This document shows positions 8,954-20,568 of a stretch of DNA of 64,000 nucleotides, piece by piece. Source of the stretch: Protoeuglena noctilucae. Its lineage: Eukaryota. Where the stretch lies: the NCBI GenBank assembly GCA_958009085.1, contig OY253672.1, positions 1,116,001 through 1,180,000 of the forward strand, written 5' to 3'. Within the stretch, counting starts at the first letter, position 1. Every line of letters starts with the position of its first letter. The notes under the pieces are model-generated. The model worked only from the letters and a program-made list of their open reading frames with translations. It had not been told where the DNA came from and ran no database searches. The position numbers were made by a program, and so were the translations under genes.

Positions 8954-8998
8954 CCCCCCCCCCCCCCCCAAGACTCAAGGCGTAATGGTTCAGCCCGG
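8954..8998 (-). mobile_element. Extremely 5'-truncated LINE insertion (last ~29 nt plus G-run tail)
   Basis: Matches the 3' terminus of the LINE copies starting at 9019 and 17600; flanked by 15-bp direct repeat CGGCGGCGGGGACAC (8939-8953 and 8999-9013). Confidence 0.7.
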
Positions 8999-10868
8999 CG
9001 GCGGCGGGGACACGCGCACCCCCCCAAGACTCAAGGCGTGATGGTCCAGCCCGAACACGTCTGACACCGGCAGGGTCAGAGCGTGGGTCAACCGCGGCAC
9101 GAGGGTGCGCACAACCTTCGTGAACACTGAGCATGGCTTCGGGGTCATCATAACCAGCCAAGAGCGCCGGGCACAGGGGGGCGAACCCCCCCACTGGCCC
9201 CTTGGGAACCACACTCCCAGAGTGCGTGGGGGCTTTGCAAAGCGTCCCGGGGGCGGCAGCGTCGTTAGGCCACCTGAACGCGTGCGGTGAAGGCAGCGGC
9301 AGCCCCAAGGGACTGGGGGGACCGGATCTCGGGGACCTGGGTCCCCCGCTCTGTCCCACAAGGGGGCGCCAAAGCGTACCAACACTCCGAACATGACGTG
9401 AAACCCTCGGCCACCGCCCCCGACTCTGCTAGGCCCCCGCCCGCCGGCGCCCGCCCGAGGTTTCCTTGCGGGCACCCCGAGACGAGCGCCGACGGGCAGC
9501 CGGCTGTCCCGCGGGGCCGAACCCGGGCTTTAGAACCCTGGAGGGCCGGCGACCTTGAACTCCTGCACGTCCAGGCGATACCGCAATGTGAAGTACTCAC
9601 CACGTCCCACGCACGCGCGAGCAGGCTACCCACACCATCACAGGAGTGCCATCTAGCAGACCCGGTGGGGCGCACCTTGCCGTGGCAGCCTATCACGCCC
9701 CCCGCCAGCAGAAGCAGCACAGCTGCGCCATGACAGAGCGATGCGTGCAGAGGGCGCCATGGGATACGCTGGCGAGCCCTCACCTGTTGCGGCCTCACCT
9801 GGGACTTACCTGCGCGGCGGCTGCCACCGCCCCTGGGACACCCTCCCACGCGGACCTGCAATGCGGACCTTCCCGGCCGCTCACGCGGCAGCCGGGAAGC
9901 CGCGCCACGAGAACCTGCGGCCATCGGCGTGGGCGAGGACGAGCCTGTCGCCCCGCTTCCCCAGCAGAGCAGCGAGGCGCCCTGCCCCAGTGACAGCCAG
10001 AGTGTCTTGGACCTCGGCTGCCACGATGGCGCCAAGCTGGGCATAGAGGCCTGCGGGCGTCGACGGGGAGCGCCAGTTCTCCCAAAGCTCTTGGCGGCGC
10101 CTCCAGATGAGCTTGAAAGCCGCGCCCACGGTGACCGCCCACGAGTACTGCGTGAAACGGCTGGAGGGAGGGGGGGCCAGGTGGAACACCGCCCGCGCCG
10201 AGAGGGCCGGGGCCCGCGCGGCCGCCTTGACCGTCTCCCACACCTCCTGGGCCCTGTCACAGGCCCAGAAGGCGTGGGCGACCGTGTCGTCGTGGGAGCA
10301 CTGCTCGCCATCCCTGCGGAGGAGGGGGCACGTGGTGAGGTCGAGCCAGTAGCAGTGCGATGCGGTGGCACGCGCGTCGGCCAGCGTCAGCCACAGCGCC
10401 TCGTGCATCTGCGGAGACAGGGGGAGAGCGTTGATGGTCTTGAGAGCGGCATGCATGCCCGCCGCCGTGACCCCGTCCGGCCCGTCCTGGGCCTCCCCGA
10501 GCGCCCCGGCCCGGGACCACTGCTCCACCTTGCGGGCGAGCCGCGAGGTGATGGTGGCCCGGTCGAAGGCCACCCCCACCGCATGTCCGACCGAGTACTG
10601 CTTAAGCGGAATGGGGACGGGCACTTCAGTGGGGCGCCGATGAGGCTCGAGGACCCACTGCATGGAGGGGGTGACAAGGGGCAGGTTGAGCTCCACCCAC
10701 CACGCGGGCTCGGGGGCAGGGCGCATAACGGCCGACGCGACCTGGGGGCGGGAAGGACGGGGGAGGAGTTGAGAGTCCTGCTGCGCACAGTAAGCCGCCA
10801 GCGTGTGCTCCGCCCTCGCCAGGTCTGCGGGGGAGGGGACCTGGCCTGCGGCAAGGGAGCGGAGGTGA

Positions 10869-11657
10869 TGATGATGATGTGCAGTTCAATAGCTGAGGGT
10901 GCTGAGGTCCATCAGGATCCTCGCCGCACGAGCTAGGCCCGCGCGACAGGGGCGCCTTCCCCCGGGGCTGCCGCACCCCGGGGGTTCCATTATCGCAGTG
11001 CATATGGCACTTGGCCCGCCCCCGCTAGGTCCCCCCACCCGAAGGGTATGGGGCCGCCGCCCCGGGCTCCAGCGCCCCTAGCCCCTTCGCCGAACCGCCG
11101 CCCCTGCCGGGACGAGCAACCGCAGGATGCCACGCGAGCGGGCCCCTGGGTACAAATACAACAACGAAGCAACGAAGCAGAGACAAGCCCCCATGCCGCG
11201 GCGCAGAGCACTTTCGCCCCATGCTAACAACGGACCCCACCCTGGTCCCACCGGCGCGGTCCCCGCGTCCCGCCGGTCGCTCTGCGTCCCCGACACGAAA
11301 GCCTGCCGTCCCTCTGCACGCACACAGCGCGCAGCGCCCCGAAAGCCCCCCTAGTCTCGGGGGCGCGGCTTGTCCCGACCAGCAGAACTCGAACGCGTCG
11401 TGCTGCCGCCTGGCGCCTGCCAGGGGATATGCGACCGCATCAGCCGTCGCGAATGCACGCAAAACACCCAACCGCACCCCCTCGCCAACTCGCCAGCCTC
11501 CGCCATGGCCAAACCACCGCCGAACCACCGCACTGCGCGCCACCGCGCCATTTTTTGTGAACCGGCTCTTCGTCACCGGCCATAAAGGCGCGGTGTCCAG
11601 AGGGCGCCACGAGGAGGCGGCCGGCGGATCGCGCCATCGCGCGTCCGAGTCCCCCCC
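10869..11657 (-). mobile_element. Non-autonomous retroposon (789 bp) with HDV-like ribozyme head and (CAT)n tail
   Basis: 17-bp TSD CAAGGGAGCGG[A/G]GGTGA at 10852-10868 and 11658-11674; empty site visible at 19432-19448; ATG repeats at left end; no credible ORF. Confidence 0.85.
11562..11657 (-). ncRNA. HDV-like self-cleaving ribozyme (candidate)
   Basis: Minus strand: P1 G-run, J1/2 hairpin, P2 CCGGCC, P3 GCC, L3 UCCUCGU, P3' GGC, P1' GCCCUCU, GG (P1.1), P4 CACCG..CGGUG, J4/2 ACGAA, P2' GAGCCGG. Confidence 0.75.
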
Positions 11658-11776
11658 CAAGGGAGCGGGGGTGAGCAGGGAGGGAGCCGCAGGCCGCAGG
11701 GGACAGAACCAGGCCCTGCCAAGGGTCCCACGCAACCAGGATACCCACGAGCTGCTCAGCCACGCCCATGGTCCAG

Positions 11777-12058
11777 AAAAAAAAAAAAAAAAAGGCCCGC
11801 GGCGGGATCGGAGCTCGACACGTCAGCACCTGGTGCCAGACGCGGGTGCCTCTCACTTCTCTGGACACCAACCGTGACCCGTGAGGGACCACGATCTCGA
11901 GCTCGTCATTTCCCGCCGCGGGTGCCGGGCACAGGGGGGCGAACCCCCCCACTGGCCCCTAGGGATCCACACTCAGAGAGTGCGAGGGAGCTTTGCAAAG
12001 CGGCCCGGGGGCGGAAGCGTCATCAGGCCACCTGAACGCGTGCGCTAGGGGAGTGGCG
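11777..12058 (-). mobile_element. Short 5'-truncated retroelement related to the LINE 3' UTR, with T17 tail on the sense strand
   Basis: 14-bp TSD CGCCCATGGTCCAG (11763-11776 and 12059-12072); 11924-12044 homologous to 9166-9286; A17 on + strand at 11777-11793. Confidence 0.75.
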
Positions 12059-12221
12059 CGCCCATGGTCCAGGGGGGGGGGGGTCTTTTCCAAATCGATA
12101 CCGACATGTCCGGCAGCTGGCTCGCCTGGCCGTGGGACGTCCCACAGTGCCGTGGCGCGAGAGGGAGGAGGTCAGCCGAGTCCATGTTGATATAGCGGCC
12201 GATCGCCAATAATGATATCGC

Positions 12222-12293
12222 GATCCCGTGGCGCAGCGGTAGCGCGCCCGCTTGACACGCGGAAGGTCCCCAGTTCGATCCTGGGCGGGATCA
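12222..12293 (+). tRNA. tRNA-Val(GAC)
   Basis: Cloverleaf GATCCCG/CGGGATC, D-arm GCGC, anticodon loop TTGACAC, T-arm CCCAG-TTCGATC-CTGGG; C-A mismatch at top of anticodon stem. Confidence 0.85.
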
Positions 12294-12358
12294 GACCTTT
12301 CGGCCCAGACACGGGTTTACAGCGTTTTGCCCCGCTCGTGAGCGCGAGCGAGCAAAAG

Positions 12359-12431
12359 TGGCACCTAGGAGACTCGAACTCCTGCCCCCAGATTCAGAGT
12401 CTGATGTCCTAACCACCTAGACGAAGGCGCC
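12359..12431 (-). tRNA. tRNA-Gln(CTG)
   Basis: GGCGCCT/AGGTGCC acceptor, loop CTCTGAA, T-arm AGGAG-TTCGAGT-CTCCT, TTTT terminator just downstream. Confidence 0.93.
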
Positions 12432-12978: not shown

Positions 12979-13371
12979 GGCCGCCTGAGGAGGAGGGGAG
13001 GAGGGTAGGGAGCGGGGGATGTCATGATTGGCCGCACATCAGCTACACAGATCGTCATTAGCCTCGGCCTCACCTTTTGTAATAGACGCCCGGGGGTCTC
13101 CACGGAGGGCCCCCGCGGCTGCATCGTCCCACTCTGGGACGGCGATCCAGCCTCAGGGCGCAGCGAGGGGGCTAGGGGTGCAAGAACCCGGGGTGGGCGA
13201 CCCCTTTGCCTTCGGGTGGGGAGACCTAGCGGGGGCGGGCCACGTGCCATATGCACTGCAACGATGGAAACCCCGGGGTGTCAGCTGCCCCGGGGGACGG
13301 CACTTCTGCCGCAAGGCGTGGCTCTGAGAGTCATAGCACCCCTCGACTGTTGAATCGCTCATCATCATCAT
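12979..13371 (+). mobile_element. (CAT)n-tailed retroposon; 5' boundary uncertain and may extend toward ~12590
   Basis: Near-identical reverse complement of 19783-20175; ends in (CAT)4; no TSD found. Confidence 0.8.
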
Positions 13372-14970
13372 GGGTACCTCCGGGCCGTCCTCACCCATGC
13401 GGGCCTGCCCGCCCCCTTCGTGGGGGCGGCGATGGCCCTCCAGGTGGAGTCGAAGGCTGTGATTGCCTTCGAGAGCGGCTGTTCCCGGCCCTTTTCTATA
13501 GAGCGCGGGGTGAAACAGGGATGCCCCTTGAGTCCCCTCCTGTTCGTCGTTGCCATAGAGCCGCTGGCATGCCGCCTTCGGTCCCTCGCCGCATCCGAGC
13601 CGCGGGCGCTCGGTGTTTCCCTATCCCCGGGGTCGTTCGGCAGCCTCCCCCCGCAGGATCTGGCATCGCGCTTTTTTGCGGACGACGCGGGTGCCCTGAC
13701 CGCAGACCTGCCCGCAGCATGGGAAGCGCTGTCGGCGACCCTGGGGGATTTCGCTGCGGCTTCTGGTCTCGAGGTCAATGCAGCCAAGACGGCAGTCTAC
13801 CGGCTTGGCAGGGGCAACCACGCCTCATTGGAGGCAGCAGCGGTGGCACGGGGCTGCCGCTGGTCCATGCCCACAGGGCCCAGCGAGGGCGTGCGCTACT
13901 TGGGCGCCCATACTCGTGGGGCACTGGCGCAGGCGTGGTCGAGCACGCTGGGTGTGATGGTCCAGCGTGGCACCGCCATCGCAGGGATGCATATGTCCAT
14001 TCAGGGGAGGGCGCGGGCGGCGAGTGCCTATGTGGCAAGCACGGCGAGTTACCTACTCGAGACGTCCCCCGCCCCTGCCTCTATGGACCAAGAGGCGGAG
14101 AAGCTTGTCAACACCCTGGTGCAGGGCAACCGCGCGGCTGGATCCCTGTGGCGTCGCACGGCTGACTGCATGGTCTCTGGCCCGCGCGCTGAGGGTGGGC
14201 TGGGGGCGACCCGGCCCACTGTGCATGTCCCAGCGCGCCGCATGCGCATTTTGGCAAAGATCCTGACGGGCGCGCCTGGCGTTGGCCCGGCTCGCCACGT
14301 GCTGGACCGGGCCCTGACGGTCCTGGGCGGCCCAGGCTGCGTGTGCCAGGCGCGCCGGCGCGGCACGGGCGCGCACGGGCACCGAGCCCCTGTAGCGCCT
14401 CGCAAATCTGGACGACGATCTTCTTGGCAAGGTCCCTGGCCGACGTGGTGTCGCCCAAGCGAGGGTGCGGCAAACGCTCCCAGGACCCCTTGCGCCCCGC
14501 AGATGCGGTTCGCACGCGAAGGAAACAACTTACGCACACCAGCCGGACCTTGGCCGTCTTGCGAGCCTGCGGGAGGGTCGGGAAGCTGGCCGGGGTTGGG
14601 GCTCGGGGGTGGGAAGTGCGCTGGGCTGCAAGGGTGCCAAGCGAGGCAGGGGCGCCTGCGCCTCCCCGCACCAATGCTGCCAGGGCTACGCTTGAGGGCG
14701 TCACTAGAGCACTCGGCCCTGTCCTGTCCCCTGCCGCCTACGACGCCCTCCCTTACCACCTCCGCCCCCTCGCTGTGGGCCAGGTCCCCTTCCCCCGCTC
14801 ACCTGGACAGGGCCGAGGGCGCGCTGGCAGCCTGTTGCTCCCAGCAGGACGCGGAAGCCCTCCCCTGCCCCTCAACACCAGCGTGCGCCCTGCGTTGGGC
14901 CCATACCCCGCGCCTGCGTGGAAGGTAGACCTTAATCTGCTTTCGACCGGGCCAGCATCACCAGCATCAC
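13372..14970 (+). mobile_element. L1/Tx1-like LINE ORF2 fragment (reverse transcriptase domain), disrupted, runs into assembly gap
   Basis: GYLRAVLTHAGLP, ERGVKQGCPLSPLLFVVAIEPL, FFADD, SGLEVNAAKT, VRYLG, PRAEGGLG; downstream part homologous to ORF 18461-19780. Confidence 0.92.
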
Positions 14971-15170
14971 NNNNNNNNNNNNNNNNNNNNNNNNNNNNNN
15001 NNNNNNNNNNNNNNNNNNNNNNNNNNNNNNNNNNNNNNNNNNNNNNNNNNNNNNNNNNNNNNNNNNNNNNNNNNNNNNNNNNNNNNNNNNNNNNNNNNNN
15101 NNNNNNNNNNNNNNNNNNNNNNNNNNNNNNNNNNNNNNNNNNNNNNNNNNNNNNNNNNNNNNNNNNNNNN
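14971..15170. other. Assembly gap (200 N)
   Basis: Run of N. Confidence 1.
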
Positions 15171-15777: not shown

Positions 15778-16092
15778 AGGGCCACCCTGTTCCCGCAGGG
15801 TTCGCCCTCCTCAACTCCCTCCGCATGGCGGTGGCCAAGGTCTTTGGCAATCGCCTCCTCCGTAAGGAGGGGGACCATGCCTGCGTCATGGAGCGCCTGG
15901 TCCTCGTGGACCAGGCGCTCCATGGCGCAGGCATGGTCCCCCTCCTTACGGAGGAAGAAGACCTTGGCCACCGCCCTGCGGAGGGAGGTGAGGAGGGCGA
16001 TGGGTCGGTAGTTAGTCCAGTCAGCTCTGGACCCCCCTTATGCAGCAGCCAGATCGCTGCGTCCGAGAACCCTGCGGGAACAGGGTGGCCCT
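15778..16092. repeat. Long inverted repeat / fold-back hairpin
   Basis: Inner 48-bp stem 15856-15903 with 15908-15955 around loop TCGT; middle stem 15802-15843 with ~15958-16000; outer 26-bp perfect stem 15778-15803 with 16067-16092. Confidence 0.92.
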
Positions 16093-17599: not shown

Positions 17600-20201
17600 C
17601 CCCCCAAGACTCAAGGCGTAATGGTGCAGCCCGAACACGTCTGACACCGGCAGGGTCAGAGCGTGGGTCAACCGCGGCACGAGGGTGCGCACACCCTTCG
17701 TGAACACTGAGCACGGCTTCGGGGTCATCATAACCAGCCAAGAGCGCCGGGCACAGGGGGGCGAACCCCCCCACTGGCCCCTTGGGAACCACACTCCCAG
17801 AGTGCGTGGGGGCTTTGCAAAGCGTCCCGGGGGCGGCAGCGTCGTTAGGCCACCTGAACGCGTGCGGTGAAGGCAGCGGCAGCCCCAAGGGACTGGGGGG
17901 ACCGGATCTCGGGGACCTGGGTCCCCCGCTCTGTCCCACAAGGGGGCGCCAAAGCGTACCAACACTCCGAACATGACGTGAAACCCTCGGCCACCGCCCC
18001 CGACTCTGCTAGGCCCCCGCCCGCCGGCGCCCGCCCGAGGTTTCCTTGCGGGCACCCCGAGACGAGCGCCGACGGGCAGCCGGCTGTCCCGCGGGGCCGA
18101 ACCCGGGCTTTAGAACCCTGGAGGGCCGGCGACCTTGAACTCCTGCACGTCCAGGCGATACCGCAATGTGAAGTACTCACCACGTCCCACGCACGCGCGA
18201 GCAGGCTACCCACACCATCACAGGAGTGCCATCTAGCAGACCCGGTGGGGCGCACCTTGCCGTGGCAGCCTATCACGCCCCCCGCCAGCAGAAGCAGCAC
18301 AGCTGCGCCATGACAGAGCGATGCGTGCAGAGGGCGCCATGGGATACGCTGGCGAGCCCTCACCTGTTGCGGCCTCACCTGGGACTTACCTGCGCGGCGG
18401 CTGCCACCGCCCCTGGGACACCCTCCCACGCGGACCTGCAATGCGGACCTTCCCGGCCGCTCACGCGGCAGCCGGGAAGCCGCGCCACGAGAACCTGCGG
18501 CCATCGGCGTGGGCGAGGACGAGCCTGTCGCCCCGCTTCCCCAGCAGAGCAGCGAGGCGCCCTGCCCCAGTGACAGCCAGAGTGTCTTGGACCTCGGCTG
18601 CCACGATGGCGCCAAGCTGGGCATAGAGGCCTGCGGGCGTCGACGGGGAGCGCCAGTTCTCCCAAAGCTCTTGGCGGCGCCTCCAGATGAGCTTGAAAGC
18701 CGCGCCCACGGTGACCGCCCACGAGTACTGCGTGAAACGGCTGGAGGGAGGGGGGGCCAGGTGGAACACCGCCCGCGCCGAGAGGGCCGGGGCCCGCGCG
18801 GCCGCCTTGACCGTCTCCCACACCTCCTGGGCCCTGTCACAGGCCCAGAAGGCGTGGGCGACCGTGTCGTCGTGGGAGCACTGCTCGCCATCCCTGCGGA
18901 GGAGGGGGCACGTGGTGAGGTCGAGCCAGTAGCAGTGCGATGCGGTGGCACGCGCGTCGGCCAGCGTCAGCCACAGCGCCTCGTGCATCTGCGGAGACAG
19001 GGGGAGAGCGTTGATGGTCTTGAGAGCGGCATGCATGCCCGCCGCCGTGACCCCGTCCGGCCCGTCCTGGGCCTCCCCGAGCGCCCCGGCCCGGGACCAC
19101 TGCTCCACCTTGCGGGCGAGCCGCGAGGTGATGGTGGCCCGGTCGAAGGCCACCCCCACCGCATGTCCGACCGAGTACTGCTTAAGCGGAATGGGGACGG
19201 GCACTTCAGTGGGGCGCCGATGAGGCTCGAGGACCCACTGCATGGAGGGGGTGACAAGGGGCAGGTTGAGCTCCACCCACCACGCGGGCTCGGGGGCAGG
19301 GCGCATAACGGCCGACGCGACCTGGGGGCGGGAAGGACGGGGGAGGAGTTGAGAGTCCTGCTGCGCGCAGTAAGCCGCCAGCGTGTGCTCCGCCCTCGCC
19401 AGGTCTGCGGGGGAGGGGACCTGGCCTGCGGCAAGGGAGCGGAGGTGAGCAGGGAGGGAGCCGCAGGCCGCAGGGGACAGAACCAGGCCCTGCCAAGGGT
19501 CCCACGCAACCAGGATACCCACGAGCTGCTCAGCCACGCCCTCAAGCACCACACGGCTGGCATTGGCACGGGGAGGCACAGGCGCGCCCACAACGCCCAG
19601 CCCCTCAAGCGCCTTGCAAACCTGGATTATTACCCTTTTGACGGGGTCCTTGGCCGACGTCGTGTCGCCCAAGCGAAGGTGCAGCAGCCGCTCCCAGCGC
19701 GTGCCCCACAGCCGCCCGCACCACGACGCCTCCAGCACCTCCGAGGCCACGGCGCCCGGGGAGTCCCAGGCCATCTTGAGCCATGATGATGATGAGCGAT
19801 TCAACAGTCGAGGGGTGCTATGACTCTCAGAGCCACGCCTTGCGGCAGAAGTGCCGTCCCCCGGGGCAGCTGACACCCCGGGGTTTCCATCGTTGCAGTG
19901 CATATGGCACGTGGCCCGCCCCCGCTAGGTCTCCCCACCCGAAGGCAAAGGGGTCGCCCACCCCGGGTTCTTGCACCCCTAGCCCCCTCGCTGCGCCCTG
20001 AGGCTGGATCGCCGTCCCAGAGTGGGACGATGCAGCCGCGGGGGCCCTCCGTGGAGACCCCCGGGCGTCTATTACAAAAGGTGAGGCCGAGGCTAATGAC
20101 GATCTGTGTAGCTGATGTGCGGCCAATCATGACATCCCCCGCTCCCTACCCTCCTCCCATCCTCCTCAGGCGGCCATCTTGAGCCCTGCGCGGCGGCTGA
20201 C
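17600..20201 (-). mobile_element. 5'-truncated L1/Tx1-like LINE, copy 2, with G6 tail; interrupted at 19783-20171
   Basis: 9-bp TSD GGGACTTCT (17591-17599 and 20202-20210); ORF2 C-terminus 18461-~19782 with CCHC finger; near-identical to copy 1. Confidence 0.9.
19783..20171 (-). mobile_element. 5'-truncated (CAT)n-tailed retroposon nested in LINE copy 2
   Basis: 14-bp TSD GGCCATCTTGAGCC (19769-19782 and 20172-20185); (ATG)4 at left end; matches 12979-13371. Confidence 0.88.
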
Positions 20202-20374: not shown

Positions 20375-20447
20375 TCCCTCGTAGTCCAGGCGGTTAGGAT
20401 ACCTGACTCTCACTCAGGAGACCCGGGTTCGACTCCCGGCGGGGGAA
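20375..20447 (+). tRNA. tRNA-Glu(CTC)
   Basis: TCCCTCG/CGGGGGA acceptor, loop CTCTCAC, T-arm CCGGG-TTCGACT-CCCGG; upstream TATATATA (~20319), downstream TTTT. Confidence 0.95.
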
Positions 20448-20494
20448 CGATTTTGCTGCTGCTGCTCAAGCCTGCAGGGCCTGCGAGAGCAAAA

Positions 20495-20568
20495 TGGATC
20501 CGCCCAGGATCGAACTGGGGGCATCTCGCGTGTGAGGCGAGCGATCTAACCAACTGATCTACGGATCC
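20495..20568 (-). tRNA. tRNA-Val(CAC)
   Basis: GGATCCG/CGGATCC acceptor, CTCGC-CTCACAC-GCGAG anticodon arm, T-arm CCCAG-TTCGATC-CTGGG, TTTT terminator, upstream TATA-like tract. Confidence 0.95.

Follow-up and report, generated by a model that had tools for sequence, protein, structure and literature searches.

Non-coding retroposons headed by a hepatitis delta virus (HDV)-like ribozyme have been described as R2 SIDEs in Drosophila (PMC3774820, PMC6765202) and as NARTc, SIDER and other derivatives of L1Tc/ingi in trypanosomatids (PMC4035085); these and the further articles are cited here for those of their sections that treat such elements and ribozymes. RTE, R4 and baggins likewise carry HDV-like heads which cut at the element's own 5′ end, and they have no promoters of their own (PMC6765202, PMC3774820). 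In the 64,000-nt stretch analyzed here, referred to as the window (Protoeuglena noctilucae, assembly GCA_958009085.1, contig OY253672.1, positions 1,116,001 to 1,180,000), a 789-bp element with a comparable 5′ end lies on the minus strand at window positions 10869..11657. It probably belongs to a family of non-coding target-primed retroposons composed of a predicted HDV-like ribozyme head, a body of ~470 nt and a 3′ module of ~220 nt, which would be transcribed by read-through and moved in trans by the enzyme of a long interspersed nuclear element (LINE). No function could be recognized in the body that separates the head from the 3′ module.

The element is inserted in one of two near-identical copies of a repeat and is missing from the other. 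In a self-comparison of the window, 9020-10868 matched 17600-19448 with 99.73% identity over 1849 nt, and 11658-11767 matched 19432-19541 with 99.09% identity over 110 nt. At 19432-19448, where the second locus is uninterrupted, the matches have 17 bp in common, and thus 789 bp were inserted and 17 bp duplicated. The 3′ copy of the target-site duplication (10852..10868, minus strand) is identical to this empty site, as was also seen by direct reading, and the 17-bp 5′ copy (11658..11674, minus strand) differs from the 3′ copy at one base. Both boundaries leave some play. The 5′ end, 11657 or 11656, is uncertain by 1 nt as it falls in a run of eight G, one of which is part of the duplication. 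At the 3′ end (10869) the uncertainty is 3 nt, since TCA is common to the tail and the duplication and may be assigned to either, which makes the duplication 14-17 bp long.

Read on the minus strand, the element starts with the G run followed by ACTCGG and ends with CATCATCATCA. Its (CAT)4 tail occupies 10868..10879 (minus strand), the last T and possibly TCA being common to the duplication. Only two ATG-initiated open reading frames (ORFs) lie wholly within the element on the sense strand (65 and 66 aa), and two longer ones (125 and 109 aa) extend from the element into the flanks. A Pfam scan (E up to 0.1) that covered the ORFs of 65, 66 and 125 aa and a stop-to-stop frame of 265 aa, but not the 109-aa ORF separately, recognized no family. 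With its duplication, empty site, simple-repeat tail, absence of coding capacity and copies with different flanks, the element is a non-coding, non-long terminal repeat, target-primed retroposon. The insertion with its 17-bp duplication and empty site, the (CAT)n tail and the lack of an ORF had all been claimed in the original prediction from which this analysis started, and they stand.

Further copies were found in public sequence runs, 12 of the 24 listed rows containing at least half of the element's sampled words. These comprise marine metagenomes, RNA libraries of the same campaign and one organism-derived set; in two related organisms, 0.21 and 0.10 of the words were present. Four runs were aligned as assembled contigs over 10700-11850. 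An 841-nt contig of run X1 spans 10870-11656 with five differences and has a foreign flank at 10870, and a 1624-nt contig of the RNA library X2 spans 10870-11658 between two foreign flanks. Four contigs of X6, not uniform among themselves (agreement 0.55), diverge from the window just past 11656, and others diverge at 10873; in X8, the contig at the 5′ side of the element stops at 11647. Contigs from which the element is missing (joints 10863 to 11670 and 10820 to 11658) represent host-repeat copies without the insertion. Element ends in other copies therefore lie at 10869-10873 on the 3′ side and at 11656/11658 on the 5′ side, the most frequent 5′ end being 11656, one base inward of the duplication-defined boundary. 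The family consists of several copies with different flanks and with ends that agree with 10869-11657, so that the 5′ end is shared among copies, a point the original prediction had singled out for checking. The contigs differ from the window only at 11041, 11046, 11293, 11355, 11393 and 11505, and the family appears to be young.

The shared 5′ end carries the full set of HDV-like features, in a motif of 95 nt at 11562..11656 that was located by descriptor match and has its predicted cut between 11657 and 11656 (all parts of the motif are on the minus strand). The 5′ strand of helix P1 (11649..11656) consists of six G (11656-11651), a bulged A11650 and C11649, and the 3′ strand is at 11599..11605, with a G11656-U11599 wobble at the predicted cut site. 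P1 is followed by a J1/2 hairpin (11625..11647) of 9 bp with one bulged A, which has a folding energy of -15.4 kcal/mol alone. The 5′ strand of P2 (11619..11624) is given by both descriptor and fold, and its 3′ strand (11562..11568) includes one bulged A. P3 with its loop L3 occupies 11606..11618, the stem being 3 bp of GCC/GGC (11618-11616 with 11608-11606) and the loop being the 7-nt UCCUCGU (11615-11609), which fits TYYHCGY and equals the drz-Agam-1 consensus L3 in the Rfam alignment. P1.1 is made up of two pairs between GG (11598-11597) and the L3 CC (11614-11613). The P4 hairpin (11574..11595) has 5 bp, a bulged C, 3 bp and a 5-nt loop (-13.7 kcal/mol alone), and J4/2 is ACGAA (11569..11573), in which C11572 would be the catalytic cytosine of a CNRA motif.

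All conserved HDV nucleotides are thus present, namely the G11656-U11599 pair, L3 UCCUCGU, the GG after P1 and CGAA with C11572. The minimum free energy (MFE) fold of the RNA from 11656 (-46.7 kcal/mol) contains the J1/2 hairpin, P2, P3 and P4, and the nested sub-folds reach -40.3 kcal/mol with P1 and -41.2 kcal/mol with P2. The nested double pseudoknot is obtained only with one single-base insertion in P1 and one in P2.

The original prediction had read the letters of the first ~96 nt of the minus strand correctly, had placed the predicted catalytic cytosine at the same position and had noted that P1 and P2 need one bulge each, in keeping with a published descriptor that matches only when insertions are allowed. 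Its P1 starting with a G-U pair is also present, but the better register begins at 11656 instead of 11657. The further claim that the element starts exactly at the ribozyme accordingly holds to within 1 nt: the cut predicted just before G11656 falls on the element 5′ end that four X6 contigs share, one base short of the limit set by the duplication. In R2, 5′ junctions vary by non-templated bases when the cut falls at the element's own end, and an extra junction base has been described there, comparable to the one base by which the window element is off (PMC3774820). J1/2 loops of 216-498 nt occur in silkmoth R2 ribozymes (PMC3774820), so the 23-nt J1/2 hairpin is no obstacle.

Two descriptors and the Rfam models were run against the window. 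Our own descriptor consisted of a 6-bp P1 starting with G, J1/2 of up to 40 nt, a 5-bp P2, a 3-bp P3, an L3 of 7-8 nt with CC, GG for P1.1, a P4 stem, C-N-A-A and the return strand of P2. Within the 128 kb of both window strands it matched only the element head, in three registers of the G run, and first-order Markov controls gave no site in 7.68 Mb when trained on the window and two in 3.84 Mb when trained on the element. An independent descriptor was machine-read from the PDF of the supplement to the RNArobo paper (PMC4870747, Figs S11-S14). It prescribes a P1 with a purine/G start facing a pyrimidine, J1/2 of up to 50 nt, a 6-bp P2, a Watson-Crick 3-bp P3, L3 TYYHCGY, RN after P1, a P4 region, CNRA and the P2 return strand, and includes one-insertion variants (PMC4870747). 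For P1 we adopted the 7 bp of the Rfam HDV consensus in place of the 5 or 6 bp printed in the supplement. With up to one insertion per helix, this descriptor had a single match in the window, with its first nucleotide at 11656 and P3 at 11618. Window-trained Markov sequence gave no match in 20 Mb, and element-trained sequence gave two in 20 Mb, none of which was left once a P4 stem was required. Six P3-L3-P3 cores occur in the window, and the full motif could be built from only one of them, at the element head.

At gathering scores, Rfam had no match in the element. When a 221-nt query was searched with E up to 10, three HDV-family models aligned to one stretch in one register: drz-Agam-1 (RF01787; 18.4 bits, gathering 37, E 0.17), HDV_ribozyme (15.7 bits, gathering 50) and HDV-F-prausnitzii (11.7 bits, gathering 44). 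These three models are mutually related and carry no pseudoknot pairs, and the matches are not significant alone. The HDV-like motif that had been predicted at the head is hence borne out as the sole match of the published descriptor with one insertion per helix, against controls of 0-2 per 20 Mb; of the descriptor or Infernal HDV search proposed as a check, the descriptor half succeeded at 11656 and the Rfam half stayed under threshold.

Searches for related heads elsewhere were negative. The first 157 nt, searched in the window with word size 7, found the element itself and short chance matches only. A scan of metagenome contigs with a degenerate ribozyme core gave four loci, none with a 5′ strand capable of forming P1 or any likeness to the element, which we judged to be chance matches, and a scan of viral contigs with the exact 22-nt core gave no matches.

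The 3′ end of the element is shared with a second non-coding family. The ~220-nt 3′ module (10869..11095, minus strand) is 84.9% identical over 139 nt to 19853-19991 and 13163-13301, which lie in the two copies of that family. Copy 1 (19783-20175, 393 bp, minus strand) has a 12-bp target duplication and a (CAT)4 tail; copy 2 (12981-13371, plus strand) is in the opposite orientation, has no obvious duplication and adjoins a 5′-truncated reverse-transcriptase ORF. The two copies are 99.7% alike. They share only the last ~220 nt and (CAT)4 with the 789-bp element, and in their different 5′ part neither our own nor the published descriptor finds an HDV-like head. A joint fold of the two 3′ modules has 60 predicted pairs, five of them changed on both sides, a weak signal from two sequences only. 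That a structured 3′ module and tail are common to two families suggests that one reverse transcriptase recognizes the module, which is likely the recognition site for the mobilizing enzyme. A second family with the same module and (CAT)4 is what would be expected if one enzyme moves both.

Compared with the described systems, the element agrees with R2 SIDEs in being non-coding and in having an HDV-like 5′ head with a cut, in the element a predicted one, at the 5′ end and junctions that vary by a few bases (PMC3774820, PMC6765202). The 3′ end of R2 SIDEs is recognized by a LINE enzyme in trans (PMC3774820, PMC6765202), as we propose for the element. R2 SIDEs have a specific insertion site in 28S rDNA and are released by cleavage from rRNA co-transcripts, whereas the element sits in a LINE-related repeat, other copies have unrelated flanks, and both the (CAT)n tail and the algal host set it apart. 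It has neither an insertion in the 28S rRNA gene nor an R2-derived 3′ untranslated region and, with no rDNA target, is not an R2 SIDE. NARTc and SIDER are likewise dispersed non-coding retroposons of protists with HDV-like first bases, which free them from co-transcripts (PMC4035085, PMC6765202). Their head is a compact 77 nt that is also an internal promoter, and their tail is poly(A), whereas the element has a 95-nt predicted ribozyme with a 23-nt J1/2 hairpin and a full P4, and a (CAT)n tail. Rfam and tRNA searches found no tRNA, 5S or 7SL match within the element, which, having no RNA polymerase III head, is not a classical short interspersed nuclear element.

Among the ribozymes themselves, drz-Agam-1 (RF01787) is the best Rfam match of the element at 18.4 bits and has the same 7-nt L3 and the same helix order. 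The element differs from it and from RTE, R4 and baggins in a score under the gathering value of 37, a bulged P1 and P2, the J1/2 hairpin and its non-coding nature. With the HDV and CPEB3 ribozymes it shares the nested double pseudoknot, and the Rfam HDV L3 differs by one base and one gap; their setting is viral or intronic, and the HDV model scores 15.7 bits against a gathering value of 50. We take the CGAA in J4/2 and the G-rich P1 to resemble those of the HDV and CPEB3 ribozymes, which to our knowledge have no bulges in P1 or P2.

Several findings weigh against a ribozyme-headed retroposon. P1 can form only with an A bulged out or with its seventh pair mismatched, and P2 likewise requires a bulged A. 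Among HDV-like ribozymes, mismatches in P1 are infrequent and have been held responsible for absent activity in vitro (PMC3774820), and the bulged P1 would be a real risk to the activity of the predicted ribozyme. The Rfam HDV matches are far under their gathering scores and vanish in a whole-window search with E up to 10. Our own descriptor was composed after the candidate was seen, and the published one had no match in the window either with P1 at 5 or 6 bp as printed or, if insertions were disallowed, with P1 at 7 bp. A decoy in which A replaces the catalytic C likewise matched once, on the minus strand. This match is probably at the element head itself, where AAGA at 11570 followed by GCCGGT would fit, and the descriptor alone thus does not single out C11572. 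The differences among aligned contigs all fall outside 11562-11657, the first 96 nt, so the ribozyme head is invariant and the copies offer no covariation. The RNA-library contig of X2 crosses the predicted cut site into another flank and could be uncleaved RNA or carried-over DNA. Lastly, neither a partner LINE with the 3′ end of the element nor any LINE with its 3′ module or head was found within the window.

Some of these points would also fit a head that derives from an HDV-like ribozyme but has lost its cleavage or had no need of it, the 5′ end being set by an internal promoter at the G run, like Pr77 of L1Tc, and the fold acting as a binding or stabilizing structure. The first 77 nt of L1Tc are both internal promoter and ribozyme (PMC3383444), and the bulges in P1 and P2, the contig across the cut site and the inactive ribozymes with P1 mismatches (PMC3774820) are in line with such a promoter. 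We still regard it as unlikely, since this is a young family with identical heads in which neither the conserved nucleotides nor any of the five pairings has been lost, no known polymerase III-type head was found, and the Rfam matches at the head are to HDV models only. More improbable still is a chance resemblance, in which a GC-rich 5′ end unrelated to any ribozyme satisfies a permissive descriptor. The Rfam scores under threshold, the two insertions needed by the descriptor and the lack of covariation data would agree with chance, as would the plain MFE fold of the 103-nt head, whose z-score of -1.75 (13 of 200 shuffles as stable or better) is uninformative for a pseudoknot. Random sequence, however, gives 0 to 2 matches per 20 Mb against one in 128 kb, the sole match starts exactly at the shared 5′ end of the family, and L3, the G-U pair, P1.1 and CGAA are all as in HDV or drz-Agam-1. 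A different question is where the element came from. It may be an internally deleted, SIDE-like derivative of a LINE with the same ribozyme head and (CAT)n 3′ end, an origin which we think quite possible while leaning somewhat against it, and which is compatible with a ribozyme-headed retroposon. R2 SIDEs retain only the ribozyme and the 3′ untranslated region of their parent (PMC3774820), and the head and 3′ module of the element are separate blocks, the module being common to a family with another 5′ part; against such a derivation, no LINE with either block was seen in the window or in the scans of metagenome and viral contigs.

For a ribozyme-headed retroposon we infer self-cleavage, read-through transcription and a mobilizing enzyme, together with a promoter-less state, along the following lines. 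The element would be transcribed within a longer RNA, for example through the LINE-related host repeat, which lies on the same strand. The ribozyme would then fold and cut 5′ of G11656, removing the upstream sequence and setting the 5′ end. The reverse transcriptase of some LINE would bind the 3′ module and tail and copy the RNA at a nicked target, leaving a duplication of 14-17 bp, and the TCA common to tail and target suggests that the tail anneals at the nick.

Two unusual arrangements were seen in the public runs. In X6 and X1, 11656 is joined back to 10913, giving a head-to-tail composite in some copies, in which an element shortened by 44 nt at its 3′ end precedes 19 nt similar to its own first bases, with the full element start after these; the upstream copy could feed read-through transcripts to the downstream copy. 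In X8, a 195-nt contig connects element bases 11-142 (window 11516-11647; the ribozyme head) with degenerate, telomere-like CCCTAAA-type repeats (plus strand), with a depth of 43.5 compared with 11.3 for the element body. Possible explanations are a chromosome end that has been healed, reuse of the head by a different element, and a chimera from assembly. The RNA-library runs X2 and X8 were set aside as evidence of expression or cleavage, as their contigs show neither transcription, strand nor 5′ ends, and the contig depth in X6 (~1000-1100) was set aside as a measure of copy number, being uninterpretable without a single-copy baseline.

The host repeat resembles the 3′ half of an ORF at 13354-14928 (plus strand; ~78% over a few hundred nt, partly inverted). 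This ORF has a reverse-transcriptase domain (RVT_1, E 5e-10) and is a 5′-truncated LINE ORF with the C-terminal half of that domain. It follows immediately on the (CAT)4 tail of the 393-bp element and continues into an assembly gap of 200 N (14971-15170). Both host-repeat copies terminate in a G run, at 9020 and 17600; they lack (CAT)n, and their 3′ end does not resemble that of the element. The host repeat was therefore rejected as a partner LINE and is best described as the insertion target. The original view of the element as a parasite of a tRNA-adjacent LINE is accordingly reduced to a LINE-related target lacking both (CAT)n and the 3′ module. The 3′ end of the host repeat (…ACGCCTTGAGTCTT followed by the G run) occurs twice in tandem in the interrupted copy (8960-9045, minus strand), with G runs of unequal length, and once in the other copy, at 17600. 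The interrupted copy is cut off at 11767. Just beyond, ~14 nt at 11770-11795 recur at 12065-12085, followed on the plus strand by an A run in one case and a G run in the other, and look like the tails of another short repeat.

Pairs of tRNA genes, divergent or convergent, are located at 12222-12431 and 20375-20568 (Val-GAC with Gln-CTG, and Glu-CTC with Val-CAC), each a few hundred bases from the cluster of LINE-related repeats and short retroposons, which could reflect tRNA-adjacent targeting. A long hairpin at 15855-15956 has sub-threshold matches to microRNA precursors on both strands (best 39.7 bits, gathering 62, E 0.0016) and is probably an inverted repeat just beyond the assembly gap. 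The window also encodes lycopene cyclase, SF3b1 and Not1, which together with the marine origin of the runs fits a marine eukaryotic alga.

The combination of features had been thought undescribed. This does not hold for the design, which is already known in insects and trypanosomatids (PMC3774820, PMC4035085, PMC6765202), and only the algal host and the details are new. A literature search, with early surveys of HDV-like ribozymes outside its reach, found no HDV-like ribozyme-headed retroposon described in an alga, and the algal mention in the pertinent section of a review of HDV-like ribozymes concerns retrozymes (PMC6765202). The design of a ribozyme-headed retroposon is thus probably extended to algae. 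More tentatively, and with expectations almost evenly balanced, this would be the first such algal family, currently active, with a ribozyme that works despite its bulged P1 and P2 and its J1/2 hairpin and with a head that is possibly a portable 5′ module. Current activity is suggested by an insertion that followed a duplication whose copies are still 99.7% identical and by near-identical copies in ocean metagenomes and RNA libraries; that the head may be portable is suggested by the RNA-library contig which joins it to telomere-like repeats.

A natural variant with a bulged P1 and P2 and a J1/2 hairpin would serve structure-function work, and the element would offer a compact, apparently young retroposon for study in an ecologically abundant organism. 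A marine photosynthetic example would broaden the known range of the ribozyme-head strategy and leave the concept unchanged. If the reading is true, self-cleaving heads would serve promoter-less retroposons as a general solution across eukaryotes, not just in animals and trypanosomes.

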